Below, one piece after another: positions 16,216 through 62,860 of a DNA stretch of 64,000 nucleotides. The translations under genes were made by a program, and so were the position numbers. The DNA is from Gemmatimonadales bacterium. GTDB taxonomy: Bacteria > Gemmatimonadota > Gemmatimonadetes > Gemmatimonadales > GWC2-71-9. Location of the stretch: the NCBI GenBank assembly GCA_035601235.1, contig DATNOR010000038.1, positions 4,858 through 68,857 of the forward strand. Direction: 5' to 3'. The notes under the pieces were generated by a model. That model did not search any database, was not told the DNA's origin, and saw nothing but the letters and a program-made list of their open reading frames with translations. The stretch's first letter is position 1, and each line of letters begins with the position of its first letter.

Positions 16216-16247
16216 CAGGGGTCGGATCGGGCGAAGGGGGGTGCCGC

Positions 16248-16445: not shown

Positions 16446-16447
16446 GC

Positions 16448-20496: not shown

Positions 20497-20500
<4 letters not shown>
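19769..20500 (+). CDS. plsC: 1-acyl-sn-glycerol-3-phosphate acyltransferase
   Basis: Start at ATG 19769 (ATGA overlap). N-terminal TM helix, with the NHSSMFD (NHxxxxD) and FPEGTRS motifs. Confidence 0.88.
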
Positions 20501-22127
<1,627 letters not shown>

Positions 22128-47384: not shown

Positions 47385-47826
47385 CGCCGGAGTCGTCCGA
47401 CTGCTGCTGTTTCGGGTAGGCGCCCTCGTCTGTGCGGCCGAGGCGGAGCGGGTGCGTGAGATCCTGCCCCGGCTCGTGCCCACGCGGATTCCCGGGGCGC
47501 CGCCCGTGGTGGCGGGCCTGGTCAACGTGCGGGGGACGCTGGTCACGGTCGTCGAGGGATGGCGGGCGCTGCGCCAGCCCGAGCCGCCCGACGATGCAGG
47601 TTCCGGGACCACGGTGGTGCTCGAGGTGGGCCGCGGCAACAAGGTCCTCGGCTTCACGGTGGACGAGGTGGTGGACCTCCTCTCCGTGGCTGGGGAGGCG
47701 CTGGAACGCCGGCAGGCGCTGCCCGGCATCGATCCGATCCTGGTGCGGGCCGTCGGACGTCGCGCCGGTCAACTCTTCGTGGTCCTCGATACCGACGCGC
47801 TGCTCACCCCCATTCTGTCTTCCTAG
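47377..47826 (+). CDS. cheW: Chemotaxis coupling protein CheW
   Basis: Start chosen at ATG 47377, an 8-nt overlap with rluD. LLLFRVGALVCAAEAERVREIL...VAGLVNVRGTLVTVVE...VLGFTVDEVVDLL is a typical CheW fold pattern. Confidence 0.85.
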   Translation: MSDAGVVRLLLFRVGALVCAAEAERVREILPRLVPTRIPGAPPVVAGLVNVRGTLVTVVEGWRALRQPEPPDDAGSGTTVVLEVGRGNKVLGFTVDEVVDLLSVAGEALERRQALPGIDPILVRAVGRRAGQLFVVLDTDALLTPILSS

Positions 47827-47835
47827 GGAGGATGT

Positions 47836-48198
47836 GTGAGTCACACTGTCCTCGTCTGCGACGACGCCATCTTCATGCGGACGATGATCTCGGACATCCT
47901 GGCCCAGGCGGGATTCGAGATCGTGGGAGAAGCGGAGACGGGGTCCCAGGCGGTCGAGAAATACCGCCAGCTCAAGCCCGATCTCGTCACCATGGACATC
48001 GTGATGCCGGACATGGGCGGCATCGATGCGGTGCGCGAGATCGTCAAGCAGGATCCCGACGCCAAGATCCTCATGTGCAGCGCGATGGGCCAGCAGGCGC
48101 TCGTGGTCGAGGCGATTCAGGCGGGGGCGAAGGATTTCGTGGTGAAGCCGTTCCAGCCGTCGCGCGTCCTCGAGGCCGTGCAGCGGGTCCTCGGCTGA
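47836..48198 (+). CDS. cheY: Chemotaxis response regulator CheY
   Basis: 120 aa. GTG start with GGGAGGA upstream. Receiver motifs VLVCDDAIFMR, LVTMDIVMPDMGG (phospho-Asp), MCSAMG and DFVVKPF. Confidence 0.93.
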   Translation: MSHTVLVCDDAIFMRTMISDILAQAGFEIVGEAETGSQAVEKYRQLKPDLVTMDIVMPDMGGIDAVREIVKQDPDAKILMCSAMGQQALVVEAIQAGAKDFVVKPFQPSRVLEAVQRVLG

Positions 48199-48202
48199 CT
48201 CC

Positions 48203-50101
48203 ATGGACCTGTCGCAGTACGCCGAGCTGTTCCTGGCCGAGAGCCGGGAGCACCTGAGCGCCTGCAACCAGCTGCTGCTCGATTGGGAGCGCACCCCCGC
48301 CAATCCCGCCCCCGTGGCCGGGCTGTTCCGCGCCGTACACACTGTGAAGGGCATGGCGGCGACCATGGGCTACGGCCGGGTCACCGATATCGCCCACCGC
48401 ACCGAGAACCTGCTCGACCTGCTGCGCCGCGGCTCGCGCCCCGCGACCGACGAGCTGCTGCAGCTCTTGTTCCGGGCGCGCGACGCGCTCGAGCACGCCG
48501 TCGAGCTGTCGGTGGTGGGACGGGAGGACGAGCTCGATGTGGCGGAGGTCGTGGCCGATCTCGAGAGCGCGGCCGCGCTGCTCGCAGGACCCGAGCGACC
48601 AGCGCCGGCGCCGGCCGCGGCGGTCGAGCCGCCGGCGGCGCCGGGGGGGGGCCGGCTGGTGCAGGTGACGCTGCGCGCCGAGGCGCAGCTCAAGGGCGGG
48701 CGCGCGCTGCTCGCCCTCAAGCGGGCCCAGGCGCTCGGGGCCGTCCAGGGGGTGACGCCGCCCCAGGCGGCGTTCGAGTCCGACGACTTCGACGGCGGCT
48801 TCAGCTTCCGGCTCGACTCGTCCGCCGCCGCGGCGGAGATCGAGCGGGCGGTCCGTGGGGCGGGGGACGTGGAGCACGTGTCCGTCGGAGGGGGGGGCGA
48901 AGAGCGCCGTGCCGCGGCCCCGCGGGGAGCGGGGGCGGCGGCCGCTGCGGAGGCGACTCCCGAGAAGAGCCGTCACATCCGCGTGGACCTGCGGCGCCTC
49001 GACGAGCTGATGGACCTGATCGGCGAGCTGGTGACGGTGCGCGGCCGCTTGAACGAGTTGGCGGCGGCGCGGCGTGATCCCGCCGTCGACGATGTGGCGA
49101 TCCAGATCTCACGCCTCTCGGCGGACCTGCAGGCCGGGATCATCCAGGCGCGCATGACGCCGGTGTGGCAGGTGTTCGACCGCTTCCCGCGCCTGGTGCG
49201 CGATCTGGCGCGCGAGCTGGACAAACAGGTGGCGTTCCGCGTGGAAGGCAAGGAGATCGAGCTCGATCGGGCGATCCTCGACGAGCTGGGCGACCCGTTG
49301 CTGCACCTGCTCCGCAACGCGGTGGACCACGGCATCGAGACCCCCGCCGAGCGGCGCCGCCGCGGCAAGCCGCCCGAGGGCGAGATCGTGCTGGCGGCGG
49401 TGCGGGAGCGGGCCAGCGTGGCGATCAGCGTGAGCGATGATGGCCGTGGCATCGACCGCGCCCGGATCCTGGAACGGGCCCGACGCGAGGGACTGGTGGA
49501 TGCCCACGCGGAGGCGCTGTCGGACGATCAGCTGCTGCGGGTGCTGGCGCGTCCCGGGTTCTCGACCGCGGAGGCCGTGACCAGCGTGTCGGGGCGGGGT
49601 GTGGGGATCGACGTGGCTGTGACGCGCATCCGCGCGCTGGGCGGCTCGATTGACATACGTACAGAGGCGGGCAAAGGGACGAGCTTCGTGCTGCGGCTGC
49701 CGGTGACGCTGGCGATCGTCCGGGCCCTGATCGCGGGGGTCGGCCGGGAGCGCTACGCCCTGCCGCTCACCTACGTGGCGGAGACGGTCGAATTCGGCGT
49801 GCAGCCGACCACCATCGTCGAAGGGCGCGAGGCGATCGTGCTGCGCAACCGTGTGGTGCCGCTGGTGCACCTGCGGCGGATGCTGGGCGTCAGCGGGGAC
49901 GCCCCGGCGCGCTGCCCCATCATCGTGCTCGAGATGGGGGAGCGCACGAGCGGCATCGTCGTGGATGGGATGCTCGGCCAGCAGGAGATCGTGGTGAAGG
50001 GCTTCGACCCGCCGCAGGGGACGCTCCCGGTATTCAGCGGAGCGACCATCATGGGCGACGGGAACCCGGCGTTGATTCTCGACGCCGGTGGGCTCGTCTA
50101 G
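48203..50101 (+). CDS. cheA: Chemotaxis histidine kinase CheA
   Basis: 632 aa. Hpt box FRAVHTVKGMAATMGY, dimerisation region IRVDLRRLDELMDLIGELV, HATPase N/G boxes (LLHLLRNAVDHGIE, DDGRGID, GRGVGIDV, GKGTSF), and a C-terminal CheW-like P5 domain. Confidence 0.95.
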   Translation: MDLSQYAELFLAESREHLSACNQLLLDWERTPANPAPVAGLFRAVHTVKGMAATMGYGRVTDIAHRTENLLDLLRRGSRPATDELLQLLFRARDALEHAVELSVVGREDELDVAEVVADLESAAALLAGPERPAPAPAAAVEPPAAPGGGRLVQVTLRAEAQLKGGRALLALKRAQALGAVQGVTPPQAAFESDDFDGGFSFRLDSSAAAAEIERAVRGAGDVEHVSVGGGGEERRAAAPRGAGAAAAAEATPEKSRHIRVDLRRLDELMDLIGELVTVRGRLNELAAARRDPAVDDVAIQISRLSADLQAGIIQARMTPVWQVFDRFPRLVRDLARELDKQVAFRVEGKEIELDRAILDELGDPLLHLLRNAVDHGIETPAERRRRGKPPEGEIVLAAVRERASVAISVSDDGRGIDRARILERARREGLVDAHAEALSDDQLLRVLARPGFSTAEAVTSVSGRGVGIDVAVTRIRALGGSIDIRTEAGKGTSFVLRLPVTLAIVRALIAGVGRERYALPLTYVAETVEFGVQPTTIVEGREAIVLRNRVVPLVHLRRMLGVSGDAPARCPIIVLEMGERTSGIVVDGMLGQQEIVVKGFDPPQGTLPVFSGATIMGDGNPALILDAGGLV

Positions 50102-50122
50102 GCCCACGCGAGGGGAGGCGGC

Positions 50123-50740
50123 ATGGAGGACGTGCGGGATCTGAAGGCGCTACAGATCGACGCCCTGCGGGAGGTGGCCAACATCGGAGCGGGGCACGCC
50201 GCCACGGCGTTATCCCAGCTCACGAACCGCCGCATCATGATCAGCGTGCCGCAGATCAACATCGCGCGGCTGGAGGAGGTGCCCGACCTGCTGGGCCACC
50301 CCCAGGACGTGGTCGCCGCCGTGCTCATGCACATGCTGGGGGACCTGACCGGGCGGACGCTGCTCCTGTTCCCCGAGTCGGTGGGGCGGCGGCTGTGCGA
50401 CATGCTGCTGCGCCGTCCGCTCGGCACGACGGTGGCGTTCGACGCGTTGGAGCAGTCGTGCCTCAAGGAGGCTGGCAACATTCTCTCGGGCGCCTACATG
50501 AACGCCCTGTCGGACTTCATGGGCATGTTGCTGCTGCCTTCGGTGCCGAGCCTCGTAGTGGACCTGTCGGCCGCGGTCCTGACCACCACCTACCTCAACT
50601 TCGGACACGAGCGCGACTTCGTGTTCTGCGTCGAGACGGAATTCGCGATTGATTCGCCCGAGGGGCTGCGGGGCCACTTCCTGCTGCTTCCCGATCTGGC
50701 GTCGCTCAAGGCCATTTTTGACGCCATCCGCCTGAGCTGA
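50123..50740 (+). CDS. cheC: CheY-P phosphatase CheC (CheC/CheX/FliY family)
   Basis: 205 aa. Duplicated signature: DALREVANIGAGHAATALSQL and SCLKEAGNILSGAYMNALSDF. Confidence 0.85.
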   Translation: MEDVRDLKALQIDALREVANIGAGHAATALSQLTNRRIMISVPQINIARLEEVPDLLGHPQDVVAAVLMHMLGDLTGRTLLLFPESVGRRLCDMLLRRPLGTTVAFDALEQSCLKEAGNILSGAYMNALSDFMGMLLLPSVPSLVVDLSAAVLTTTYLNFGHERDFVFCVETEFAIDSPEGLRGHFLLLPDLASLKAIFDAIRLS

Positions 50741-50743
50741 CCC

Positions 50744-53443
50744 GTGACGGCGCCGGCGCTCTCGGAACGCGACCTCGCCGTCCTCCGATCCTTCGCCCGC
50801 CGGATCGACCCTTCGGACGCGGGCGCGCACAACAACCTCGGCGTCCTGTATTACCAGAAGGGCCTGGTCGAGGACGCGATCGCCGAGTTCACCCGCGCGC
50901 TCGAGCTCGACCCGAAGATGCAGGTCGCGCAGCGCAACCTCGAGATCGCCTATCACGACACGGGCTACTACGACCAGCGCGTGGCCCAGCTGCGGGAGCG
51001 GCTGCGCAGCGCCCCCGACGACCGCGACGCGCGCTGGGAGCTGGGGCGCGCCTACGCGATCCTCGGCGCCCAGGAGGACGCCGTCGGGGAGTTCGAGCAG
51101 CTGCTGGCGCATCGCCCCGACGACGTGGCCGCCATCATCCAGCTCGGGCTCGCGGAAAAGAACCGGGGGCGGCCCGAAGCGGCGACGGAGTGGTTTCTGC
51201 GCGCCGTGGAGCTCGAGCCCGACTCGAGCGTCGTGCACTTCTATCTGGGGGAGATCTACTACAACCGGGGCTTGAACGCCGAGGCGCTCGGGGCGCTCGA
51301 GCGGGCGGTGGCCCTGAACCCCGACAACGCCAACGCCCACTACCTGATGGCCTTCGTCTTGGGCGACCTGGGTCGCCACCAGGACGCCCGGGCCGCCTCG
51401 AAGCGCGCGATCCAGCTCAACCCGCCGCTGGCCCGCGCCCAGACCAACCTCTCGCTCGAGCGCTACAACGCGGAGCGCAAGAGCCAGGAACGGCGCCAGC
51501 GGCTCGTACCCGAGCCGCAGGTGGTGGAAGGGAACGAGCTGGCGCACTACAACCTCGGGCTCGCCTTCCGGCAGAAGGGCTACTACAACGAGGCGCTGCG
51601 GGAGTATCGCCTGGCGCTGGAGCGGGGCGAGGACCGGCGGCTGACGCTGCAGGCGATGGCGGAGGTGCACCTGCTGAAGCACGACTTCGCCACGGCGCTC
51701 GAGCTGTACGACACGCTGCTGCGCGAGGTGCCCGACTCGCCCAAGCTGTGGAACGAGCGCGGAGTCGTGCTGCACCAGGCGGGCCGCACCGACGAAGCGC
51801 TGGCCTCCTACCGACAGGCGGTGGAGGTGGATGCCAAGTACGCGCTCGCCTGGAACAACCTCGGCGTGGTGCAGGCGCACAAGACCGCGGCCGACGCTGC
51901 GATCGAGTCGTTTCGCACGGCGCTGCGGTTGCAGGGGGCGTTCAGTGCCGCACGCTTGAACCTCGCCCTGCTGCTCTACCAGCTGCGCCGCTTCCAGCTG
52001 GCACTCGAGGCGTACCGCCAGGTGCTGTCGGGCGAGCCCGCCTCCGCCCCGGCCTGGAACGGCGTCGGGCTGGTGCTGGTGGAGCTGAAACGCTTTCCCG
52101 ACGCGCGCAACGCGTTCGTGCGCGCGGTGGAAGCGGACCCATCGCACGCGGGCGCGCATTACAACCTGAGCTTCACCCTGTCGAACCTCGGGGACTTCGA
52201 TGGCGCGCTCCGCGCCACCAAGCGCGCCCTGGAACTCGATCCCTACTACGTATCGCAGAAGTTCGCGCTCACGATCGACCTGCAGTACGAGAAGACCACG
52301 ATCGGGATCGCCCCGGAGATTTCGGCCGACGTGACCACCGAGACGATCGGCGAGGACTTCAGTTTCGACCAGCGGCTGCTGGACAACATCTTCCAGGAGC
52401 TCGAGCCCCCTGCCGCGCCGGAGCCGCCGGCCGGGAAGGCGGCCGACGACCCGCTGGCGCTGGCCCGCGACTACGTGAGCAAAGGGTTGATGGACGTCGC
52501 GGCGGCGGAGGCGGTGCGCGCCGTGCAGCGCGGCGCCAGCCGCGCCGACGCGGCCGTCCTGCTCGGCGACATCTTTGCGAAGCGGGGCCTGCACGGCGAG
52601 GCGCTGGAGCGCTACCGCGAGGCGCGCGCCCTCGAGGCCGAGCGCGTCGATGCGCGCCTGGGCGAGGTGAAGGCGTTGTTCGCGCTGGGCGGCCGCCGCG
52701 CCGAGGAGGCGCGCGCGCTGGCGGAGGAGCTGCTCGTGCTCGCCCCCGACCACGTGGACGCGCTCGTGGCGGCGGCGCGGGGACGCGCGGCGGCGGGCGA
52801 CGCGGCCGGGGCGCTCACGGCGCTGCAGCAGGCGCAAACGCGGGCGCCCGGGCGCGCCGACCTGCACAAGCTCCAAGGCGACGTGGCCATGAAGGTCGGC
52901 GACAAGCAGGGCGCGCTCGCCGCGTACCGCGCGGCGCTCGAGCTCGACCCGGGCTACGTGCAGGTGTGCGTCGACCTCGGCCGGCTACACGAAGAGAAAG
53001 AGGAGTGGAGCGCCGCCCAACAGGCGTACGAGCGGGCGCTCGACGCGCTGCCCACCTTCCACGAGGCGGCGCTCGCGCTGGCGGACCTGCTGCGCCGCTC
53101 CGGGCGCGCGCGCCAGGCGGTGGTGCGGCTCGCGGAAATGCTCGAGCAGGACCCCTACGACCTCCCGGCACTGTTGCTCCTGGGACGGGCGTTGCTCGAT
53201 GACAAGCGCGACCCCCAGGCCCTCGAAGCCTTCCGGCGGGCCCTCAAGTTCGACCCCGACCAAATGGAGGCGCTGTTCCAGCTGGGCGTCGTGCTCGCGC
53301 GGCTGCATCGCTACGCCGAGGCGGTGGAAGCGTGGGAGAAAGTGACACGCGTGGATCCCGGCGGTCCGTTCGCGCAGCGGGCGCGCGTGCACGCCCGCAC
53401 CGCGCTCGATCTGCAGCACATCTTCGACTCGGACGCCGCCTGA
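50744..53443 (+). CDS. 899-aa tetratricopeptide-repeat protein
   Basis: GTG start 3 nt after the cheC stop. More than 15 recognisable TPR units (e.g. AHNNLGVLYYQKGLVEDAIAEFTRALELDP, AWNNLGVVQAHK...). No signal peptide or TM helix seen. Confidence 0.85.
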   Translation: MTAPALSERDLAVLRSFARRIDPSDAGAHNNLGVLYYQKGLVEDAIAEFTRALELDPKMQVAQRNLEIAYHDTGYYDQRVAQLRERLRSAPDDRDARWELGRAYAILGAQEDAVGEFEQLLAHRPDDVAAIIQLGLAEKNRGRPEAATEWFLRAVELEPDSSVVHFYLGEIYYNRGLNAEALGALERAVALNPDNANAHYLMAFVLGDLGRHQDARAASKRAIQLNPPLARAQTNLSLERYNAERKSQERRQRLVPEPQVVEGNELAHYNLGLAFRQKGYYNEALREYRLALERGEDRRLTLQAMAEVHLLKHDFATALELYDTLLREVPDSPKLWNERGVVLHQAGRTDEALASYRQAVEVDAKYALAWNNLGVVQAHKTAADAAIESFRTALRLQGAFSAARLNLALLLYQLRRFQLALEAYRQVLSGEPASAPAWNGVGLVLVELKRFPDARNAFVRAVEADPSHAGAHYNLSFTLSNLGDFDGALRATKRALELDPYYVSQKFALTIDLQYEKTTIGIAPEISADVTTETIGEDFSFDQRLLDNIFQELEPPAAPEPPAGKAADDPLALARDYVSKGLMDVAAAEAVRAVQRGASRADAAVLLGDIFAKRGLHGEALERYREARALEAERVDARLGEVKALFALGGRRAEEARALAEELLVLAPDHVDALVAAARGRAAAGDAAGALTALQQAQTRAPGRADLHKLQGDVAMKVGDKQGALAAYRAALELDPGYVQVCVDLGRLHEEKEEWSAAQQAYERALDALPTFHEAALALADLLRRSGRARQAVVRLAEMLEQDPYDLPALLLLGRALLDDKRDPQALEAFRRALKFDPDQMEALFQLGVVLARLHRYAEAVEAWEKVTRVDPGGPFAQRARVHARTALDLQHIFDSDAA

Positions 53444-54594
53444 TGGCCATCGAGGGACCGCTCCGCGAGCTCGGCATCCACGACGTGTTCCAGCTGCTCG
53501 ATTTGAGCCGCAAGACCGGCGTGCTGCGCGTGACCTCGGAGCTGCGGCACAACGCGGGTACGGTGTCCTTCGAGGGCGGGACGATCATCTTCGCCGAGAT
53601 CCGCTCCAATCCGCACCCGCTCGGGGCGCTGCTCCTGCGCACCGGCAAGATCACCGACGCGGACCTGGAGCGCGCGCGCGACATGCAGGAGCGGCAGGGG
53701 GACAAGCGGCGGCTCGGCGAGATCCTCGTCTCGCTCGGCGCCATCACGCCGCGGGAGCTCGAGCGCCAGGTGCGCTTCCAGATCGAGGAAGTCGTGTTCG
53801 AAATGATGAGCTGGCGGGAGGGTTACTTCTCCTTCACCGAAGGCCCGCTCGACGACGCGCCGACGGACGGGACCGTTCGGATCCCCACGGAGGCGCTGCT
53901 GATGGAGGGCGCCCGCCGCATCGACGAGTGGTCGCGCATCGAGGGTCGGATCCCGCACCTGGGCGTCGTGCCGGCGCTCGCCCCGCCGCAGGAAGGGGAT
54001 TCCGGAGAGCTCGATCTGCTGCCGCCCGAGTGGGAGATGCTCGCGGCCATCGACGGCCAACGCGATGTACGCGCGATCGCCGCCGCACTGGGCCGCTCCG
54101 ACTTCGAGGTGGCGAAGACGCTGTTCGGACTCGAGAGCGCGGGCGTCATCGTGCTGGCCGACCCCGGCACGACCAAGCGCGAGCGCACCACGCTCGCCGC
54201 CGATCTGGCCCAGCTGGTGGCGCGCGCCGAAGACGCCCTGGCGCGGCGCGACCTGGAGGAGGCGCGTGGCGTGGCCGAGCAGGCCGCGGGCGTGCATCCG
54301 CACGATCCCGCCGTGCACCTGCTGCTCGGTCGCATTGCGCTCGCGGCCGGACGCGGTCCGGACGCGGTGGAAGAGCTGCGGCGCGCCCTGCGGCTCGATC
54401 CCCTGGGCGTCGCGGCGTACCGGCTGCTCGGCTACGCGCTCGTCGCGACCGGCCGCTTCGCCGAGGCCCTGGACCAGTGGGACCAGTGGGAGCGCCTGGC
54501 GCCGCGCTCGGAGGCGGAGCTGGCACGGCTCGACGAGGTGCGCCGTGCGCGCGGCGCCGCCCAGACGCTCGCCGGAGCGAGCACGCATGGCTGA
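53443..54594 (+). CDS. PATAN (DUF4388) domain protein with C-terminal TPR region
   Basis: Start ATG 53443 (TGATG junction). MAIEGPLRELGIHDVFQLLDLSRKTGVLRV...FEGGTIIFAE is the DUF4388/PATAN signature. It has a helical insert (LGEILVSLGAITPRELE) and C-terminal TPR-like helices. Paralogous to 58826..60442. Confidence 0.8.
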   Translation: MAIEGPLRELGIHDVFQLLDLSRKTGVLRVTSELRHNAGTVSFEGGTIIFAEIRSNPHPLGALLLRTGKITDADLERARDMQERQGDKRRLGEILVSLGAITPRELERQVRFQIEEVVFEMMSWREGYFSFTEGPLDDAPTDGTVRIPTEALLMEGARRIDEWSRIEGRIPHLGVVPALAPPQEGDSGELDLLPPEWEMLAAIDGQRDVRAIAAALGRSDFEVAKTLFGLESAGVIVLADPGTTKRERTTLAADLAQLVARAEDALARRDLEEARGVAEQAAGVHPHDPAVHLLLGRIALAAGRGPDAVEELRRALRLDPLGVAAYRLLGYALVATGRFAEALDQWDQWERLAPRSEAELARLDEVRRARGAAQTLAGASTHG

Positions 54595-55414
54595 CGACAT
54601 CAAGGCGCTCTCGGCCGAGCTGGCGCGGGACCCGGACAGCCTGGTATTCCTGCGGCTGGGCGAGCTGCTGCGTCACAAGGGGCAGGTCGACGCGGCCCAT
54701 CGCGTCGCCCTCACCGGTCTCGAGCGCCACCCGCATCTGGCGGACGCGCACGACCTGTACGCCCGCATCCTCGCCGACAAGCATGACTACGAGCGCGCCT
54801 TCGACGAGTGGGACATGGCGCTGCGGATCGCCCCCGACCACGTGGGGGCGCTCAAGGGTCTCGCCTTCCTCTATTTCAAGGTGGGCGACGTGCAGCAGGC
54901 CGCGGCCCATCTGGAGGCGGCGCAGCGCGTCGCTCCGGATGATCCGGGGATCGCGCAAGCGCTCGCGCTGGCGCACGGCGGCGAGGCCGGTCCGGGAGCC
55001 GCGTCGCCGGCGCCGGAGCCGATGGCGCCCGCGCCGGCGGCCCAGCCGCTCGAGGAGTCCCGCGTATTCGCGGGACTGGAAGGGGCGGAGGAAGGGCTGC
55101 TGCTGCTCGATCCGTCGGGCCAGGTGCTGGGGGGCGCCCTCAAGGATCCCTCGGGGCGGGACGTGACGGACGCCGTGGCCGCCTACCTGGCGGGTGTGTC
55201 GCAGGAGGCGGGGCGCACCGCCAAGCTGCTCGGTCTGGGAAGCTGGACCGGACTCGCCGCGGAAGGCCGGCACGGCCACGCCCACCTCACGCCGCCTACG
55301 GGGTCGGCGCTGCTGCTCGTGGTGCGCGAGCGCGCGGTGCCGATGGGGCGCCTCGCGATCATCGCCCAGCGCGCCGCCGTCGCGGCGCGCCGCTGGCTGG
55401 AAGCGCAGGCGTGA
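54587..55414 (+). CDS. TPR + roadblock/LC7 (MglB-like) fusion protein
   Basis: Start ATG 54587, an 8-nt overlap. N-terminal TPR (about 125 aa), a Pro/Ala linker, and a C-terminal roadblock-like segment GLLLLDPSGQVLGGALKDPSG...VAAYLAGVSQEAGRTAKLLGLGSW...ALLLVVRERAVPMGRL. Confidence 0.75.
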   Translation: MADDIKALSAELARDPDSLVFLRLGELLRHKGQVDAAHRVALTGLERHPHLADAHDLYARILADKHDYERAFDEWDMALRIAPDHVGALKGLAFLYFKVGDVQQAAAHLEAAQRVAPDDPGIAQALALAHGGEAGPGAASPAPEPMAPAPAAQPLEESRVFAGLEGAEEGLLLLDPSGQVLGGALKDPSGRDVTDAVAAYLAGVSQEAGRTAKLLGLGSWTGLAAEGRHGHAHLTPPTGSALLLVVRERAVPMGRLAIIAQRAAVAARRWLEAQA

Positions 55415-55770
55415 CCACGGCCCCCGCGGGATACGGCCGCGTGCTGGATCTGGTGACGCGCGTCCGCGGCGTGCGCGGCGCCATGCTCGTCGCGGGCGAC
55501 GACGGGCTCGTGGTCGCCGAGCAGTTGATGGAGGGGATCAAGGGGCCGGCCGTGGCGGCGCTCGCGGCGAGTCTCGCAAGCCGGCTGCGGCGCGCGCTCG
55601 AGGCAGCGGGCGTGGGCGCGGGTCAGTTCTGGCATCTCCAGGCGGAGCAGGGCGCCTTGCTGGTCGTCACCGCACCCTCGGGGGTGCTGGTGGTCGCCGT
55701 GGCGGAGCCCGACGTGAATGTGGGCCTGGTGCGGCTCGAGCTGCTGCGCGCGGCGGAGGCGGTGGGATGA
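55411..55770 (+). CDS. Roadblock/LC7 domain protein (MglB-like)
   Basis: 119 aa from GTG 55411 (GTGA overlap). LVTRVRGVRGAMLVAGDDGLVVAEQL...AALAASLASRL...LLVVTAPSGVLVVAVAEPDVNVGLVRLEL is a typical roadblock pattern. Confidence 0.8.
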   Translation: MTTAPAGYGRVLDLVTRVRGVRGAMLVAGDDGLVVAEQLMEGIKGPAVAALAASLASRLRRALEAAGVGAGQFWHLQAEQGALLVVTAPSGVLVVAVAEPDVNVGLVRLELLRAAEAVG

Positions 55771-56237
55771 CGACGCGCGCGGTCGAGCCGTGGGTTTTCG
55801 AGCCGCTCGTCAAGTTCGTGAAAGAGGCGGGGGCGCGCCTGGTCCTGCTGATGACCCCGGCCGGACAGGTGCTCGCGCAACACGGGTTCTCGCGCGCGGT
55901 GGACGTGATGGCGGCCGCGGCGCTGGGCGCCGCCATCATGGCCTCGACCGATGAGATCGCCCGGCAGCTGCGCCAGCCACCGTTCGCCGGACTGAATCAT
56001 CAGGGGGAGCGACACGGCATCTTCCTGGCGGCGGTCCCGACCGGGCGCGGCCGGCTGGTGGCGCTCGTCGTGTACGACCTCGATGCTTCGTCGCTCGGGC
56101 TGGTGCAGTTATTCTTCGAGCAGCTCGCCGCCGATCTGCAGGCGGCGAGCCCGAAGGACAGCGTGCCCAAGCAGGTGCTCGCGGCGGACTTCGAGCGCGA
56201 GCTGAGCGACAGCTTGAACACGCTGTTCGGGAGATAG
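55767..56237 (+). CDS. Roadblock/LC7-like protein, third paralog
   Basis: 156 aa from ATG 55767 (ATGA overlap). ARLVLLMTPAGQVLAQHGFSRAVDVMAAAALGAAIMAS...HGIFLAAVPTGRGRLVALVVYD, plus a ~40-aa C-terminal tail. Confidence 0.7.
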   Translation: MTTRAVEPWVFEPLVKFVKEAGARLVLLMTPAGQVLAQHGFSRAVDVMAAAALGAAIMASTDEIARQLRQPPFAGLNHQGERHGIFLAAVPTGRGRLVALVVYDLDASSLGLVQLFFEQLAADLQAASPKDSVPKQVLAADFERELSDSLNTLFGR

Positions 56238-56241
56238 CCTC

Positions 56242-56841
56242 GTGTCCCTGGTCAACTTCACGACGCGTGAGATCACCTGCAAGATCGTCTACTACGGGCC
56301 CGGCCGCTCGGGGAAGACGACCAACCTGCATTACATCTACGGCCGGGTGCCGGACTCGCGCCGCGGCCGCCTGGTGTCGCTCGCCACCCAGACCGACCGC
56401 ACCCTGTTCTTCGATTTCCTGCCGATCGACCTGGGGCAGATCTCCGGCTTTTCGACCCGGTTCCAGCTCTACACCGTGCCGGGCCAGGTGTACTACAACG
56501 CGACCCGCCGGCTCGTGCTCCAGGGCGCGGACGGCGTCGTGTTCGTGGGCGACAGCCAGGCGCGCCAGCTCGACGAGAACCTGGAAAGCCTGCAGAACCT
56601 GCAGAGCAACCTGCTCGAGCACGGCGTCGACATCCGCACGATCCCGCTGGTGCTGCAATACAACAAACAGGACTTGCCGCGCGAGCTGATCCTCTCGGCC
56701 GCCGACCTGGACGACGCCCTCAACTTCCGCGGCGTGCCGAGCTTCAGCGCGGACGCGCTGCACGGCAAGGGAGTATTCGAGACGCTCAAGGGCATTTCCG
56801 AGCTGGTGCTGAAAAAGCTCGCGGCGGGGACGGCGGCGTGA
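56242..56841 (+). CDS. mglA: Ras-like small GTPase MglA
   Basis: 199 aa, aligning along its full length by eye with Myxococcus MglA. KIVYYGPGRSGKTTNL (P-loop), TDRTLFFDFLP (intrinsic Arg), the MglA-specific TVPGQ in place of DxxGQ, and QYNKQD (NKxD). Confidence 0.92.
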   Translation: MSLVNFTTREITCKIVYYGPGRSGKTTNLHYIYGRVPDSRRGRLVSLATQTDRTLFFDFLPIDLGQISGFSTRFQLYTVPGQVYYNATRRLVLQGADGVVFVGDSQARQLDENLESLQNLQSNLLEHGVDIRTIPLVLQYNKQDLPRELILSAADLDDALNFRGVPSFSADALHGKGVFETLKGISELVLKKLAAGTAA

Positions 56842-58826
56842 CGAGCGCCCTCAATCCCAAGTACTCGTTCGACAGCTTCGTGGTGGGCGCCGCCAACCGG
56901 CTCGCCGTCACCGCGGGGCGGACGGTCGCGGAGAACCCGGGCGCGGCCTACAACCCGCTGTTCATCTACAGCGGATCGGGCCTGGGCAAGACCCACCTCC
57001 TGATGGCGGTGGGTCAGGCGGCGAAGAAAGCGGCCCCCGCGCTCAACATCGAGTACTTCACCCTGGACGAGTACGTCGAGGCGTTCCACGCCGCCATCGC
57101 CGCGGGGCAGGGCGACGCGTTCCGCCGCCGCTTTCAGAACGTGGACGTGCTGCTCGTGGACGACGTGCAGTTCCTCACGAACCGCAAGGAGATGCAGTCC
57201 GAGCTGTTGCGCCTGACGGAGGCGCTGCAGGTGGGGGGGCATCAGATCGTGCTCACGAGCGACCGTCCACCGCCCGAGATCGCCGACCTGGACGAGCGCC
57301 TGATCTCGCGGCTCTCGGGCGGGCTGGTGGTCGACATCGGGGCGCCGGATTACGAGACCCGGGTCGCCATCCTGCGCCGCAAGGCCGACGAGCGCGGGGC
57401 CAAGTTCGAGCCGGGCGTGCTCGAGACGGTCGCGGACGCGGAGTCCGGCAACGTGCGGGAGCTGATGGGGGCGCTCAACCGGCTGGTCGCGTTTCAAGCG
57501 GTGAACGACCGCTCCATCAACGCGGAGACGGCGAAACAGCTGCTCGGCATCGGAAGCGAGGGCGCGCCCAGCGATGGTGGCAAGGCCGCGGGGAGGGAAG
57601 GAGCGGCGCGCGAAAGCGCGGGGCCCGGGGCCCGGGGCCCGAGAGACGAGTTCGGCGACTTCCTGGCCGACGTGACGGTCACCGTGGGGAAGGCGGTCGA
57701 GGCGTGGCGCGCGCGGGTCGGGGAGGCGATGCTGCGCTGGGAGGGGGAAGGCTATCGCACGCGGCGGCTCGAGGCGCTACTCGAACGCGATACGCCCGCC
57801 GCCGTGGACCAGGTGATCGCGGCGTTCACGCAGGACGTGGAGCGCCTGAAGGAGCTCGAGGCTGAGGTCGCGGAGCTCGACCCCCAGGCCGCCGGGCAGA
57901 GTGTGTTTCGCGATCCGGAGCGGCTGGGCGAGGCGGAGGAGGTGGCGGCCAAGGTGCGCGATGGCGCCGCGCCGCCCCCGGGGCCGTCGGCCGCGTTTCC
58001 GCTCGCGGCCTACGCGGTGGGGCCGTCCAACGAAGTGGCGGTGGGCGCCGCGCGCGCGGTGCTGAAGCAGCCCGGCAAGAAGTACAATCCGCTCGTGCTG
58101 GTCGGCAAGAGCGGTCTCGGCAAGACGCATCTGCTCAACGCCATCGGCCTCGAGCTCGCCCGCGGCAAGCGGGCGGTGGTGGCGTGTCTCTCGACGCAGG
58201 CGTTCGTGGATGAGCTGATCGCGGCGATCGATGGCGACCGCGTCGACTGGTGGCGGGCGCGCTACCGCCGCGCGACCGCGCTGCTGCTCGACGACATCCA
58301 TCTCATTGCCGGCAAGGAGCGCACGCAGGAGGAGCTGTTCAACCTGTTCAACCTGCTGCAGGACAAGGAGCGCCAGCTCGTCTTCACCGCTCCGGCACAG
58401 CCGCATACGCTCCCCGGTCTGGAGGAGCGCATCGCGTCGCGCCTGGCCGGAGGCCTGGTCGCGGAGATCAAGGAGCCCGACCGCGAGGTGAAGCGGGCCG
58501 TGCTGGAGCGCCTGCTGGGCCAGCAGAACTCCAGCCCGGATCCGGCGCTCGTCGACTACCTCGCCGACCGTCCGGCGGAGTCGGTGCGCGGCCTGGTGGG
58601 CGAGCTGCAGCGGGTCGTGGGCGCGGCGGCCGCCCAGGATGGTCCGCTCACGGCGGGGCTCGCGCGCGAGGTGCTCGAGGGCCAGGCGCCGCGCGACAGC
58701 CGCCGCAGCGCCGGCTTCCGTACGTCGGGGATCGTGGTGTCGAGCCTGGGCGGCATCAAGAGCCGTGAGAAAATGGTGTGGGACTGGAGCGACGTCGCCG
58801 ACCGTGTAATCGAGGAGTTCCGCTGA
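56838..58826 (+). CDS. Tandem DnaA-type AAA+ ATPase protein lacking DnaA domains I and IV
   Basis: 662 aa from GTG 56838 (GTGA overlap with mglA). Module 1 (aa 7-236): NPKYSFDSFVVGAANRLA, AYNPLFIYSGSGLGKTHL, LLVDDVQF, IVLTSDRPP, ERLISRLSGGLVV and GNVRELMGALNRL. Module 2 (aa 386-615): AYAVGPSNEVA, KYNPLVLVGKSGLGKTHL, LLLDDIHL, LVFTAPAQP, ERIASRLAGGLVA and ESVRGLVGELQRV. No helix-turn-helix DnaA-box-binding domain is present. Confidence 0.85.
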   Translation: MTSALNPKYSFDSFVVGAANRLAVTAGRTVAENPGAAYNPLFIYSGSGLGKTHLLMAVGQAAKKAAPALNIEYFTLDEYVEAFHAAIAAGQGDAFRRRFQNVDVLLVDDVQFLTNRKEMQSELLRLTEALQVGGHQIVLTSDRPPPEIADLDERLISRLSGGLVVDIGAPDYETRVAILRRKADERGAKFEPGVLETVADAESGNVRELMGALNRLVAFQAVNDRSINAETAKQLLGIGSEGAPSDGGKAAGREGAARESAGPGARGPRDEFGDFLADVTVTVGKAVEAWRARVGEAMLRWEGEGYRTRRLEALLERDTPAAVDQVIAAFTQDVERLKELEAEVAELDPQAAGQSVFRDPERLGEAEEVAAKVRDGAAPPPGPSAAFPLAAYAVGPSNEVAVGAARAVLKQPGKKYNPLVLVGKSGLGKTHLLNAIGLELARGKRAVVACLSTQAFVDELIAAIDGDRVDWWRARYRRATALLLDDIHLIAGKERTQEELFNLFNLLQDKERQLVFTAPAQPHTLPGLEERIASRLAGGLVAEIKEPDREVKRAVLERLLGQQNSSPDPALVDYLADRPAESVRGLVGELQRVVGAAAAQDGPLTAGLAREVLEGQAPRDSRRSAGFRTSGIVVSSLGGIKSREKMVWDWSDVADRVIEEFR

Positions 58827-60442
58827 TGGCCATCAAGGGATCGCTGAAGGAAGCGTCGCTCCCCGACGTGCTCCAGCTGCTCGCGCTGGGGCAGAAGACG
58901 GGGTGTCTCTCCATCGCCGACCGCTCGAACTTCGGCTACATCTACTTCGACAAGGGTCGCATCTGCTACGCGTCGATCGTCAACCGGCGCGATCGCCTGG
59001 GCGACATCCTGGTCAAGCACTCCAAAATCACCCAGGCGCAGCTCGACGTCGCCGTGCACCGCCAGACCAGGGAGCACGGCAAGAAGCTCGGCGAGGTCCT
59101 GGTCGGCATGGGGGTCATCACCCAGGCCGATCTCGAGCGCTACATGCGGGTGCAGATCGAGGAATCGGTCTACTATCTGTTCACCTGGACGCAGGGGACG
59201 TTCAACTTCGAGTCCGACGTCCGCCCCGAGCGCCAGGACTTTCGGGTCTCGATCAACCCCGAGTCGTTGCTGCTCGAGGGCGCGCGTCGCGTGGACGAGT
59301 GGAGCCTGATCGAGAAGAAGATCCCCGGGTTCGATTTGATCTTCGTCGTGGACGGGGACCGGCTCGCCATCAGCGAGGCGAAGCTGACCGACACCCAGCA
59401 GCGCATCCTGCCGCTGCTCGACGGGTCGCGCGACGTGAACCACGTGATCGAAGACTCCGGGCTGGGAGAGTTCGAGATCGGCAAAGCGCTGTACGGGCTG
59501 ATCACCGCCGGGTTCGTGCACCGCGCCGGCCGCACGGCGTCGGCGGCCGACGCGCAGATCACCGATGCGCGCGTGGAAGAGCATCGCAATCTGGGGATCG
59601 CGTTCTACAAGACGGGCATGCTGGACGAGGCGACGCGTGAGTTCCGCCGCGTCGCCGAGCTGCGCTCAGGGGAAGCCAACGCCCACTTCTACATCGGCCT
59701 CGTCGCCCTGAAGCAGGCGCGCTGGCGCGAGGCGATGGAGGCGTTGCGCCTGGCGGCGGAGAAGGGCGGGAACCGTCCCGCGGTGTTCCACAACCTGGGC
59801 TTTGCCTACGAGCAGCTGGGCCGGCTCGACGACGCCGAGGCGGCCTACGGCGAGGCGGCCACGCGTGCCCGGACCGATGCGAAGGTGTACCTGGGCTGGG
59901 GGGTCGTGGCGCTGAAGCGGGGCGACTACGCCAGTGCCGCCGGCCGTCTGGATCGGGCGCGGGAGCTGTTCGGCAAGGTGCCGCCGCCGGCCTGGTTCTG
60001 GGCGCGCACGCTCAGCGCCGCGGGGGCGGGCGCATTCGAGCTCGCGCAGGAGCTGGCCGAGGAGGGGGCGGAGGCCTTCCCGTCGCACGCCGCGCTCCAG
60101 AACAACCTGGCGGTGCTCAAGGAGCTCGCGGGGGACCTCGCGGGGGCGGAGGACGTCGTGCGCGCGGCGCGCAAGAACGAGCCCTCGCTCCCCCAGCTGT
60201 CCAAGAACCTCGGCGACCTCACCTACCGCGCGTCGCGCTACGACGAGGCCTGGGAGGCGTACCGGCGCGCCGTGGAGCTGGCCCCCGACCTGGGCGACGA
60301 CGTGTACTTCAAGCTCGGCAACATCGCGTACAAGCGGAACGAGCGCGAGCTCGCGACGCAGCTGTGGCGCCAGGCGCTCGAGATCAACCCGAAGCACGAG
60401 CTCGTCAAGGCCAATCTGGACACGTTGAGCGCGTTGTCGTGA
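58826..60442 (+). CDS. PATAN (DUF4388) domain protein with C-terminal TPR region, second paralog
   Basis: Start ATG 58826 (TGATG junction). MAIKGSLKEASLPDVLQLLALGQKTGCLSI...FDKGRICYAS, helical insert LGEVLVGMGVITQADLE, EGARRVDEWSLIEKKIP (compare EGARRIDEWSRIEGRIP in the first paralog), then about 7 TPR units. Confidence 0.8.
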   Translation: MAIKGSLKEASLPDVLQLLALGQKTGCLSIADRSNFGYIYFDKGRICYASIVNRRDRLGDILVKHSKITQAQLDVAVHRQTREHGKKLGEVLVGMGVITQADLERYMRVQIEESVYYLFTWTQGTFNFESDVRPERQDFRVSINPESLLLEGARRVDEWSLIEKKIPGFDLIFVVDGDRLAISEAKLTDTQQRILPLLDGSRDVNHVIEDSGLGEFEIGKALYGLITAGFVHRAGRTASAADAQITDARVEEHRNLGIAFYKTGMLDEATREFRRVAELRSGEANAHFYIGLVALKQARWREAMEALRLAAEKGGNRPAVFHNLGFAYEQLGRLDDAEAAYGEAATRARTDAKVYLGWGVVALKRGDYASAAGRLDRARELFGKVPPPAWFWARTLSAAGAGAFELAQELAEEGAEAFPSHAALQNNLAVLKELAGDLAGAEDVVRAARKNEPSLPQLSKNLGDLTYRASRYDEAWEAYRRAVELAPDLGDDVYFKLGNIAYKRNERELATQLWRQALEINPKHELVKANLDTLSALS

Positions 60443-61260
60443 CGGCGGGGGGGGGGCCGGACGAGCGGGCGTTTCGAGCGCTCACCCAGAAGATCACGCG
60501 GGCGCGAGGCCTCGCGTGCGACAGCTACAAGGACCGCTGCCTGCGGCGCCGCATCGCGGTACGGATGCGGGCGCGCGGCGTCCACACGTTCGACGATTAC
60601 AGTCGCCTGCTCGATCAAGACCAGCGCGAGTACGACCTGCTGGTCGACGCCCTCACCATCAACGTCACCAAGTTCTTCCGCAACGTGGAAACGTGGCGCG
60701 CGCTTGCGCCGTGGCTCGACAAGCTCTGGATCGCGCGCCGGGGCGAGGTGCGGGTCTGGTCGGCCGGATGCGCGTCGGGAGAGGAGCCGTACACCGTAGC
60801 GGTGGCGCTGGCCGAGGCGGCGCGCCGCGCCGGCCAGGAGCAGCTGCTCGGCCGCGCGCGCGTGGATGCCACCGACATCGACCGCGCGAGCCTCGAGCGC
60901 ACGCGGGCGGCGCAGTACCCCGAGGCGGCGTTCAGCGAGACCCCGCCGGAGCTGGTGGCGCGCTATTTCACGGCGCCACCGCGGCAGCCGGCACCCGAGC
61001 TGCAGCGCATCGTGCATGTCGCCAAGCACGACCTTACGAGCCAGCCGCCGCCCGCGCCGCCCTACGATCTGGTCGTCTGCCGCAACGTGGTGATTTACTT
61101 CGACCGGGCCATGCAGGAGCAGCTGTTCACGCTGTTCGCCGACGCGCTCGCGCCGGGGGGCGTGCTGCTGCTTGGCAAGGTCGAGACCTTGTTCGGTGCG
61201 GCGCGCGAGCGCCTGGTGCTCGAAGAGCCCCGCGAGCGGATTTATCGGCTGGCCCCATGA
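60439..61260 (+). CDS. cheR: Chemotaxis protein methyltransferase CheR
   Basis: Start GTG 60439 (GTGA overlap). LTINVTKFFRN, SAGCASGEEPYTVA (SAM-binding) and VCRNVVIYFD. Confidence 0.9.
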   Translation: MTAGGGPDERAFRALTQKITRARGLACDSYKDRCLRRRIAVRMRARGVHTFDDYSRLLDQDQREYDLLVDALTINVTKFFRNVETWRALAPWLDKLWIARRGEVRVWSAGCASGEEPYTVAVALAEAARRAGQEQLLGRARVDATDIDRASLERTRAAQYPEAAFSETPPELVARYFTAPPRQPAPELQRIVHVAKHDLTSQPPPAPPYDLVVCRNVVIYFDRAMQEQLFTLFADALAPGGVLLLGKVETLFGAARERLVLEEPRERIYRLAP

Positions 61261-61757
61261 TGGGAGCCGCGGCGCCGCAGGAGACGATCGTGAAGGTGGC
61301 CGACTGGGCCGCCGGCCGGGCGGATGCGGTGCTCGTGACGCTGGGCCTCGGGTCGTGCGTCGCGATCATGCTGCACGATCCCCGCGCCTGCGCCGGCGCG
61401 ATGGCCCACATCCTGCTGCCTTCGAGGAGCCTCGCGCGCGACATCACGAATCTCGCCAAGTTTCCCGAGACTGCCGTGCCGCTGCTGGTGGAGCGTCTCG
61501 CGACGCTGGGGGCCGACCCCCGATACCTCGTCGCCAAGCTCGCGGGCGGCGCCAGCATGTTCGCGCAGCTCATGACGCCGGGTTCGGTGCAGATGGGGGA
61601 GCGCAACGTCGCGGCCGCCCGCGCCGTGCTGCGCCACGTGGGGATCCCCGTGGCGGCCGAAGCGGTGGGCGGGGACGCCGGCCGCTCGGTGCGGTTCTAC
61701 GTGGCAGATGGCCGGGTCGAGATCCGGTCGGTCGGCGTCGATGCCATCGTCATCTGA
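61257..61757 (+). CDS. cheD: Chemoreceptor glutamine deamidase CheD
   Basis: Start ATG 61257 (ATGA overlap). [14 protein letters not shown] (catalytic Cys), [18 protein letters not shown] and GERNV. Confidence 0.88.
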
Positions 61758-62856
61758 CGGCCGCCCCAGCGTCCTGGTCGTGGACGACAGCGCGCTGATG
61801 CGGCGCGTGTTGAGCGACGTGCTGGGCGCGGGCGACGGCATCGCGGGGGCGGGGGAGTTTCGGGTCGTGGGCACCGCGCGCGACGGCTTCGATGCGGTGC
61901 GCAAGGTGCATCAGTTCGACCCCGACGTCGTGACGATGGACCTCGAGATGCCGGAACTCGACGGGCTGGGCGCCATCGGCTACATCATGTCGGAGTCGCC
62001 CCGCCCGATCGTGGTGGTGAGCGCGCACGCGGGGCCCGGCACCGGCACGGCGATCCGCGCCCTGGAGCTCGGCGCCGTGGAGATCGTCGCCAAGCCGGAC
62101 GATGCGAACCGTGCCGCGCTCGAGCGCATGGCCCCCGAGCTGCGCGGCGCCGTGCGCCGGGCCCTCGCCGCCGACGTGTCGCACGTCTCGGTCCTGGCGC
62201 GGCCGCCCGCGCCGGTGCGGCGCGCGCCCGAGCAGGCGCTCCGGGCCCGGGCCCGCCTCGCGGTCGCGCTCGCGGCATCCACCGGCGGGCCGCGCGCCCT
62301 CGCGGAAGTGATCCCGCGCCTCCCCACCGGCCGGACGGCCGCGGTGCTGGTCGTGCAGCACATGCCGCCCCGGTTCACCCGCTCGCTCGCCGAGCGGCTC
62401 GACTCGTTGTCCGCACTGCGCGTGGTGGAGGCGGACGACGGGGCGCCCGTGGTCGCCGACACGGCGTACGTGGCCCCGGGCGATTATCATATGCGAGTGG
62501 TCGCCGCCGCCGCAGGGCCCGCCATCGCGCTCGACCAGGAGCCGCCCGTGTGGGGCGTGCGCCCGGCCGCCGACCCGCTGTTTCGCTCGGTGGCGCAGGT
62601 GTTCGGCGCGAGGAGCATCGGCGTGGTGCTCACGGGCATGGGCCGCGATGGCGCGGAGGGCGTGCGCGCGATCCGCGCCGCCGGGGGCGGAGGGATCGCC
62701 CAGGACCGCGACTCGGCCGTCATCGCCGGCATGCCCACCGCGGCGGTGCAGATCGGGGGCGTGGATGCGGTCTTCCCGCTGGGCGAGATCGCGGGGCGGA
62801 TCGACACGGAGCTGGTCACGAGGGGGGCCGGCATGCGGGACACGGGGCGCGTGTGA
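61741..62856 (+). CDS. cheB: Chemotaxis response regulator protein-glutamate methylesterase CheB
   Basis: Receiver domain ([25 protein letters not shown]) plus methylesterase domain ([26 protein letters not shown]). Start ATG 61741 is preferred; 61708 is possible. Confidence 0.92.
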
Positions 62857-62860
62857 TGGC

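Follow-up and report, generated by a model that had tools for sequence, protein, structure and literature searches.

A 64,000-nt stretch of contig DATNOR010000038.1 from a Gemmatimonadales bacterium (the window, by which we mean the whole stretch, and in which all positions are counted) carries a gene for the small GTPase MglA preceded directly by three genes encoding roadblock/LC7-type proteins, referred to here as g1, g2, and g3. The four genes lie within an operon for chemotaxis (Che) proteins, and on balance, if by no great measure, it is probable that they constitute an enlarged version of the MglA switch that has become part of a chemosensory operon, in which g3 would be the GTPase-activating protein (GAP), g1 and g2 would be adaptors, and the whole would be linked to CheA-CheY. 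An initial annotation of this DNA had drawn attention to the three roadblock genes next to mglA. That picture is changed by the observations that the paralogs are non-equivalent, that a gene for an AAA+ ATPase is equally tightly coupled, and that the whole block sits in a che operon and is flanked by two genes encoding PATAN-TPR proteins. The four genes are:

54587-55414, + strand: g1, TPR-roadblock fusion; ATG start, 275 aa
55411-55770, + strand: g2, minimal single-domain roadblock/LC7 protein; GTG start, 119 aa, GTGA overlap with g1
55767-56237, + strand: g3, MglB orthologue with a C-terminal tail; ATG start, 156 aa, ATGA overlap with g2
56242-56841, + strand: mglA, Group-1 MglA small GTPase; GTG start, 199 aa, 4-nt gap after g3, GGGAGA upstream

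The initial annotation had described three roadblock genes chained to mglA by 4-nt overlaps or a 4-nt gap, and its coordinates and junctions are exact; it had also described one of the genes as fused to a TPR domain, one as a minimal 119-aa protein and one as tailed, and the roadblock fold is supported for all three.

Conservation of the block was examined by searching GTDB (one genome per species) with MglA as the query and taking the best 80 of 578 relatives. Nearly all of these 80 loci carry Gemmatimonadota labels (Gemmatimonadales or Gemmatimonadaceae), with two labelled as actinobacterial bins and two only as 'bacterium'. Gene order was judged only in loci of sufficient length, and the g1-g2-g3-MglA order is kept in every one of these. 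Intact copies of g1, g2, and g3 were found in 62, 69, and 74 loci respectively, and the median junctions are -4 nt between g2 and g3, +4.5 nt between g3 and mglA, and -4 nt between mglA and the AAA+ gene. MglA is 75-97% identical to the window copy across the 80 loci and the roadblock genes diverge much faster, at 34-89% identity, with dN/dS values of 0.10-0.29 that indicate purifying selection. Two among the most divergent g1 relatives, both from metagenomes and with only 33-40% identity in the C-terminal domain, lie in the same operon, including the upstream pseudouridine synthase gene. The same order in every sufficiently long locus, together with the dN/dS values, argues that the four-gene arrangement is not due to chance, and the strict co-conservation and operon coupling make it plausible that the genes encode a heteromeric or multi-state regulator set.

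A Group-1 MglA and three non-equivalent roadblock proteins

The window MglA is a Group-1 GTPase of the Myxococcus/Thermus type with an intrinsic arginine finger and a catalytic glutamine. It matches Myxococcus xanthus MglA with an E value of 1.3e-73 and Thermus thermophilus MglA with 1.2e-68 over residues 1-196, and the alignment to both is ungapped over the first 150 residues. The G3 motif is Y-T-V-P-G-Q at residues 77-82 (T78-V-P-G-Q82) instead of DxxGQ and includes the catalytic Gln, and the arginine finger lies in D-R53-T54-L-F-F-D, which aligns without gaps to R53/T54 of the M. xanthus protein. GPGRSGKT, NKQD, and F56/F57/F59 are also retained, and the hallmarks named in the initial annotation (TVPGQ, the intrinsic Arg in DRTLFFD, and NKQD) are thus all present on alignment to M. 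xanthus MglA. The TVPGQ motif is part of the published definition of Group-1 MglA proteins (PMC4316618). A Group-1 mglA is regarded as 'coupled' if an MglB-family gene lies within four genes of it, and here g3 is 4 nt away with g2 and g1 next upstream.

The third roadblock gene, g3, has the clearest affiliation. It scores 25.9 bits against Pfam Robl_LC7, for which the cut-off is 23 bits, and a profile of g3 orthologues (A3) searched against the PDB gives significant matches only to MglB chains (E values from 1.3e-16 to 3e-9), with the next match at an E value of 0.13. The best values are 1.3e-16 for M. xanthus MglB and 8e-11 for T. thermophilus MglB, and the NCBIfam MglB model aligns through the final residue of g3. 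The 30-residue tail ends in F142-E143-x-(E/D)-L146-x-x-(S/N)-L150-x-x-L153-F154-G-R, a pattern that is nearly invariant across the phylum; E143, L146, L150, and F154 are invariant, and the F...F spacing matches that of the M. xanthus C-terminal helix, with fewer acidic residues in the g3 tail. The M. xanthus MglB C-terminal helix (about residues 145-157, ending L156-F157) binds an MglA pocket formed by L64/I67/K181/K185 and promotes nucleotide exchange (PMC6785124; PMC11016934), and L64, I67, and K181 of this pocket are retained in the window MglA. The 37-residue g3 tail alone found no match in the PDB, so the case for its homology to the C-terminal helix comes from the residue pattern and from the NCBIfam alignment over the full length. 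By its profile matches, g3 is the MglB orthologue, cognate to the window MglA.

Residue-level comparisons of g1, g2, and g3 with MglB come from alignments and are inferential. The initial annotation had raised the conservation of MglB residues that contact the MglA switch regions, and this holds only in part. At the M. xanthus positions concerned, A64 and G68 of the alpha2 patch and the Switch-I contacts N37 and R98, g3 keeps A59, which is nearly invariant, and R96, whereas G68 is replaced by E63 and N37 by A32. At the patch on helix alpha2 that contacts MglA, the C-terminal domain of g1 (g1C) has Q206 and an invariant R210, and in g2 an Arg-rich helix alpha2 takes the place of the hydrophobic surface with which MglB binds MglA. 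A double substitution in this helix (A68/A72R in Thermus; A64/G68R in Myxococcus) lowers the affinity of MglB for MglA 10-fold and abolishes GAP activity (PMC3199381).

The g1 product is a TPR-roadblock fusion of a small, lineage-restricted family. Its N-terminal half matches Pfam TPR with an E value of 1e-11, and the single sequence scores 19.7 bits against Robl_LC7 (E value 6.9e-4), below the cut-off. A profile of 33 orthologous g1 C-terminal domains (A1) searched against the PDB matches Asgard Robl with an E value of 1.3e-5 and T. thermophilus MglB with 8.5e-5, over 96-105 residues and therefore the whole domain, and M. xanthus MglB with 0.011; the NCBIfam MglB model matches g1 residues 172-270 (E value 1e-4). 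An AlphaFold2 (AF2) model of g1 was made from a diverse alignment (A5), with a mean predicted local distance difference test score (pLDDT) of 90.2 and C-domain values of 84-97, and it supersedes an earlier run on close homologues only (80-97% identity; A4) in which the C-domain had an unreliable pLDDT of about 40-50. In the model, residues 1-129 form a TPR domain of eight helices, residues 130-170 a disordered Pro/Ala linker, and residues 171-274 a C-terminal roadblock domain whose beta-beta-alpha-beta-beta-beta-alpha topology lacks roadblock helix alpha1. When the model was searched against the PDB with Foldseek, the top non-TPR matches were all T. thermophilus MglB, the best being 1j3w_C (E value 3.6e-6, TM 0.72 on the target, 125 columns) and the others 3t1r, 3t1s, and the MglA-MglB complex 3t12_B. 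The roadblock fold of g1, for which the single-sequence Pfam score was sub-threshold, is confirmed by the profile search and the AF2 model with its Foldseek matches. The initial annotation had allowed that profile searches might fail to assign the fold to the first or third gene, and it is assigned in both, for g3 above the Pfam cut-off and for g1 by profile and model. Domains of the g1C type are rare, with 261 clusters (at 50% identity) among 1.84 billion representatives at E<=1e-3, and the full-length members of the family nearly all measure 250-320 aa and carry the domain C-terminally.

The g2 product is a single roadblock domain that scores 36.3 bits against Robl_LC7, and a profile of its orthologues (A2) matches PDB entries for Asgard Robl (E value 7e-11), dynein LC7 (about 1e-6), MglB (1e-4), and CvnB5 (7e-4). 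Profile-profile comparison with hhalign places g1C and g2 closest together (95% probability, E value 2.6e-8), with E values of 0.008 for g1C and g3 and 2.8e-4 for g2 and g3. By these comparisons g1C and g2 form a separate pair, resembling one another and roadblock proteins of the generic type more than they resemble g3. D31 of g2 is nearly invariant and G32 invariant, and a conserved Asp directly before the invariant Gly is the signature of the MglC/MglB_orphan1 clade (PMC4719450); this D-G pair is also present in generic roadblock proteins and is not specific. The g2 profile falls short of the solved MglC structures, and g2 is best described as MglC-like in its size of 119 aa and its D-G signature rather than as an established MglC orthologue.

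The surrounding chemotaxis operon

The four genes sit in a 16-gene operon on the + strand (47320-63798, about 16.5 kb) with overlaps or gaps of no more than about 25 nt. The other twelve genes, assigned by their Pfam matches, are:

47320-47826, + strand: CheW
47836-48198, + strand: CheY
48203-50101, + strand: CheA
50123-50740, + strand: CheC; gaps within the CheW-CheC half are 4-21 nt
50744-53443, + strand: large all-TPR protein, 899 aa; Pfam TPR families with E values down to 1e-85
53440-54594, + strand: PATAN (DUF4388)-TPR protein 1; DUF4388 E value 5.6e-32 plus TPR; 8-nt overlap with g1
56838-58826, + strand: tandem DnaA-domain-III AAA+ ATPase, 662 aa; Pfam Bac_DnaA twice, E value 2.4e-98; GTGA overlap with mglA
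58823-60442, + strand: PATAN (DUF4388)-TPR protein 2; DUF4388 E value 9e-40 plus TPR
60364-61260, + strand: CheR
about 61260-61757, + strand: CheD
61708-62856, + strand: CheB
62884-63798, + strand: CheW-domain protein, 304 aa

All of the Che proteins (CheW, CheY, CheA, CheC, CheR, CheD, CheB, and the second CheW) score above their Pfam cut-offs. Among the 80 loci, all that are long enough to tell share the order CheA-CheC-TPR-PATAN-g1-g2-g3-MglA-AAA+-PATAN-CheR, and the CheR-CheD-CheB-CheW order is also present in two related loci, L001 and L082. No promoter- or terminator-like signal above chance was found within the 16.5-kb operon stretch, which supports, without proving, a single transcript.

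The AAA+ gene follows mglA in all 67 of the 67 loci with enough sequence. Its product has NCBIfam DnaA/Hda matches on both halves and lacks DnaA domains I and IV, and both AAA+ modules have intact Walker A (GLGKTHLL) and Walker B (LLVDDVQF, LLLDDIHL) motifs; the extreme C-terminus is conserved as EK-x-x-W-(D/E)-W-P...DR-x-IEE-(L/F/W)-R. Both PATAN-TPR proteins match NF053729, the NCBIfam model for an MshE-related cyclic di-GMP (c-di-GMP) motif, with 44.5 bits for protein 1 and 54.9 bits for protein 2 against a cut-off of 38, at residues about 58-114 and inside the PATAN region. These motif matches suggest a c-di-GMP input to the module. The 899-aa TPR protein was considered as a possible SgmX and this was rejected, since its 40 bits against an NCBIfam cut-off of 1800 reflect generic TPR similarity, and NCBIfam gives only generic TPR matches for this protein.

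Several features of the right part of the operon concern gene boundaries. The longest CheR and CheB open reading frames (ORFs) overlap the preceding genes by 79 nt (60364-60442) and 50 nt (61708-61757), and translation of both probably starts at a later position; in L082 the overlap of CheR with the PATAN gene before it is only 4 nt, and 46 nt separate CheB from CheD. The CheW domain of the 304-aa protein covers only residues 154-289, and the N-terminal ~150 residues have no Pfam match. Its equivalent is two CheW-domain ORFs in L001 (overlapping, in different frames) and L082 (adjacent), and in the L001 region examined (14900-20597) these are followed by genes for a TPR protein, a Peptidase_MA_2 protein, and another TPR protein.

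Upstream of the operon are genes for IleRS, a DksA/TraR-type protein, and an RluD-type pseudouridine synthase, and the window from 1 to 47384 is otherwise occupied by housekeeping genes including those for ValRS, ThrRS, thiolase, acyl-CoA dehydrogenase, SHMT, Hsp20, Lon, enolase, FtsH, HPRT, two MacB/FtsX-type permeases, DHPS, and YggS. A CdaA-type diadenylate cyclase gene (DAC plus the CdaA N-terminal transmembrane domain) is located at 39439-40272, 7 kb upstream of the operon, and indicates that cyclic di-AMP signalling is present in the organism. The G+C content stays within 66-76% throughout, and nothing points to the che-mgl operon being carried by a mobile element.

Possible roles of the paralogs in an MglA switch

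The role of g3 as a GAP with a C-terminal helix like that of Myxococcus MglB is the part of the proposed mechanism that we hold with most confidence. A g3 dimer would dock on MglA-GTP through its two-helix face and act as a GAP, and its conserved C-terminal helix would bind the distal MglA pocket and modulate nucleotide exchange, as in M. xanthus. The roles of the other two paralogs, the link through the TPR arm, and the connection to the Che proteins are put forward with less confidence. With Q206 and R210 in g1C and an Arg-rich helix in g2 at the alpha2 patch, where Arg substitution in MglB abolishes GAP activity, g1 and g2 are unlikely to be second GAPs; they may instead be MglC-like platform or adaptor subunits, forming either homodimers or a g1C:g2 heterodimer, that tether or gate MglB/MglA. 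MglC itself, a roadblock paralog, has no GAP activity and serves as a bridge between RomR and MglB (PMC4719450, PMC10329633), and in Myxococcus the bridge is released when MglA-GTP binds MglB (PMC10329633). The TPR arm of g1 could then connect the switch to the TPR, PATAN, and AAA+ partners, such that a CheA-CheY phosphorelay would flip the state or location of MglA, a one-operon analogue of the link between Frz and the polarity module, with control of cell polarity or surface motility as the presumed output, for which type IV pili, gliding, the placement of flagella, and the polarity of budding are candidates. A more elaborate version, which we think unlikely in this full form, is a single-operon polarity computer: the CheA/CheY relay would act on a g1C:g2 heteromeric platform, a bacterial counterpart of Ragulator held by the g1 TPR arm, that gates the MglB C-terminal helix and/or recruits MglA, and the PATAN-TPR proteins with their c-di-GMP motifs and the DnaA-like ATPase would be new inputs or effectors.

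Several points weigh against the adaptor-module reading. Within g3 itself, M. xanthus D35 and N37 are replaced by T and A and G68 by E, and the Asp three residues before the invariant Gly is missing (T-P-A-G versus D-K-N-G in Myxococcus). It is g1C, not g3, that keeps this Asp, a marker of MglA-coupled MglBs (D175-P-S-G178, both at least 90% conserved), and with this MglB-type Asp and with MglB as its best structural match, g1 could contact MglA directly. The K14/R115/K120 (KRK) patch is the surface of M. xanthus MglB that binds MglC (PMC10329633); it is missing in g3, where the alignment places W9, Q114, and Q119, and an MglC-like contact would need another interface. The solved M. xanthus MglC structures (7CT3, 7CY1) are absent from the matches of the g2 and g1C profiles at E<=10. 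No gene for a methyl-accepting chemotaxis protein was found by Pfam in the window operon, nor in the 5.6 kb downstream of CheR in L001, and the chemoreceptor may be encoded elsewhere in the genome.

The MglB-like features of g1C lend themselves to a different division of labour, in which the asymmetric 2:1 dimer on MglA is filled by different paralogs, for example g3 and g1C, with the GAP face and the exchange-promoting C-terminal helix on separate polypeptides and g2 either competing or held in reserve. In M. xanthus the two protomers of MglB do different jobs (PMC11016934), g1C retains the D-x-x-G that g3 lost and has its best structural matches in MglB, and the translational coupling of the genes favours matched stoichiometry. 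However, profile comparison places g1C much nearer to g2 than to g3, its invariant Arg occupies a site where Arg substitution disrupts the MglB-MglA interface, and it lacks roadblock helix alpha1, and we regard a heteromeric GAP as doubtful. We give a similarly low probability to the proposal that a g1C:g2 heterodimer binds GDP-bound or nucleotide-free MglA as a Ragulator-like platform, acting as recruiter or guanine nucleotide exchange factor (GEF) in place of RomR/RomX, with g3 as the opposing GAP. This agrees with the finding that g1C and g2 are each other's closest relatives and are most similar to roadblock proteins of the Asgard/eukaryote type, which function as GTPase platforms in heterodimeric form (PMC3747258, PMC10933270), and with the lack of a RomR/RomX-like gene among the operon genes by Pfam. 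However, RomR and RomX could be encoded elsewhere in the genome, exchange activity is not known for any bacterial roadblock protein besides MglB, and the GEF role of RomRX is itself disputed in one account (PMC13408092).

The conserved AAA+ gene raises the question of whether g1 and g2 serve the co-transcribed tandem DnaA-like ATPase, leaving g3 as the only roadblock protein in the MglA cycle. Roadblock superfamily proteins have been proposed as general NTPase regulators (Koonin and Aravind 2000, as cited in PMC4316618), and the ATPase gene is conserved as strictly as the roadblock genes, but all well-documented prokaryotic roadblock partners are small GTPases, there is no known precedent for a roadblock-AAA+ pairing, and g3-mglA stands between the g1 and g2 genes and that of the ATPase, which together make this very improbable. 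That the extra roadblock genes are decaying mglB duplicates without a role, for which only their faster divergence than MglA speaks, is refuted by the conservation data, since across the 80 species every locus of sufficient length has them undamaged and in the conserved order, and they are under purifying selection, with family-specific invariant residues in each paralog and a confident fold prediction for g1.

Comparison with known systems

The initial annotation had stated that MglA normally pairs with one MglB. Coupling as such is usual, with 390 of 449 MglA genes coupled to MglB (Wuichet and Sogaard-Andersen 2014, PMC4316618), but the one-to-one part needs qualifying, as the literature already contains 1:2 systems and cases in which MglB and an MglC-clade gene are both coupled (PMC4316618, PMC4719450). 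Two coupled MglBs occur in some systems, and in a small subset of Group-1 MglAs coupled to two MglBs only one belongs to the co-evolving clade (PMC4316618); in seven genomes MglB and an MglC/orphan-clade gene are both coupled to a Group-1 mglA (McLoon et al. 2016, PMC4719450). The Group-1 loci examined in the supplementary table of the 2014 survey have at most two MglB-type genes each, and the survey notes PATAN genes close to some loci of Group 1 and Group 5, as in Makarova et al. 2006 (PMC4316618). The theme of an MglA, an MglB, and an extra roadblock paralog with a PATAN neighbourhood is thus already known, and it is the three coupled roadblock genes, the TPR-roadblock fusion, the insertion into a complete che operon, and the DnaA-like partner that appear new to the literature.

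Gemmatimonas aurantiaca T-27 is the only Gemmatimonadetes genome in the 2014 survey, where Table S2 gives MglB>MglA> at GAU_1115 and PATAN>MglA>-PATAN> at GAU_1409 (PMC4316618). The second entry fits the PATAN...MglA-X-PATAN frame of the window without its roadblock genes, and counts against the module as we read it. In all Gemmatimonadota loci examined here, three roadblock genes separate the first PATAN gene from mglA, and either G. aurantiaca differs or genes were missed. A full-text literature search found no further paper naming both Gemmatimonadetes and MglA.

Gemmatimonadota are abundant in soil, and their cell biology has hardly been studied. In Myxococcus the link from Frz to the MglA/MglB/MglC/RomR module is still debated, and its parts are scattered in the genome. 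A phylum-wide operon provides independent comparative evidence for functional wiring of Che and MglA outside the myxobacteria, and a short list of candidate connecting parts: the TPR-roadblock fusion, the PATAN-TPR proteins with c-di-GMP motifs, and the DnaA-like ATPase. It also lets one ask, in a natural setting, whether the GAP, exchange, and adaptor roles, which in Myxococcus fall to one MglB dimer and MglC, are divided among several roadblock paralogs.

The MglA-MglB pair of T. thermophilus (3T12, 1J3W) provides the closest solved structure to g1C and a strong match to g3, and mglB lies directly upstream of mglA there as well; in contrast to the window it is a simple 1:1 pair with no extra roadblock genes and no che context. 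The actinobacterial conservons (CvnA-D) are likewise fixed operons of a sensor kinase system with a roadblock protein and an MglA-family GTPase, but the GTPase is a Group-2 MglA without the Arg finger, there is one roadblock protein, the kinase is a classical histidine kinase rather than CheA, and the partner is a DUF742 protein. Eukaryotic and Asgard Ragulator/Rag assemblies share with this system the arrangement of several roadblock-fold subunits around a small GTPase, and g1C and g2 score best against this type, whereas the GTPase here is MglA rather than a Rag or Arf-like protein and heterodimerisation is hypothetical. Nearer relatives are the loci with 1:2 MglA:MglB, where more than one roadblock gene is coupled to one mglA, and the PATAN-linked loci, where PATAN genes adjoin mglA/mglB in Chloroflexi, Chlorobi, Aquificae, and Gemmatimonas; no published description of such loci includes a TPR fusion, a location within a complete che operon, or a DnaA-like ATPase.

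The closest functional parallel is the M. xanthus polarity module of MglA, MglB, MglC, RomR/RomX, and RomY, which is driven by Frz. The two share a Group-1 MglA that carries TVPGQ and the Arg finger, an MglB whose C-terminal helix is a predicted one in g3, an extra roadblock paralog of ~120 aa, and a link, proposed for the window, to a Che-type pathway. They differ in that M. xanthus has one extra roadblock protein and the window two, one of them fused to TPR; in that the window cluster has PATAN-TPR proteins and a tandem DnaA-like ATPase and lacks RomR/RomX/RomY; and in that g2 has no detectable similarity to MglC and g3 lacks the KRK patch. The genes mglBA, mglC, rom, and frz are at separate loci in M. 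xanthus whereas Gemmatimonadota have all in one operon, and the operon is chiefly of value as a compact natural setting in which to ask how a Ras-like polarity switch receives Che signals and how the work is shared among roadblock paralogs.

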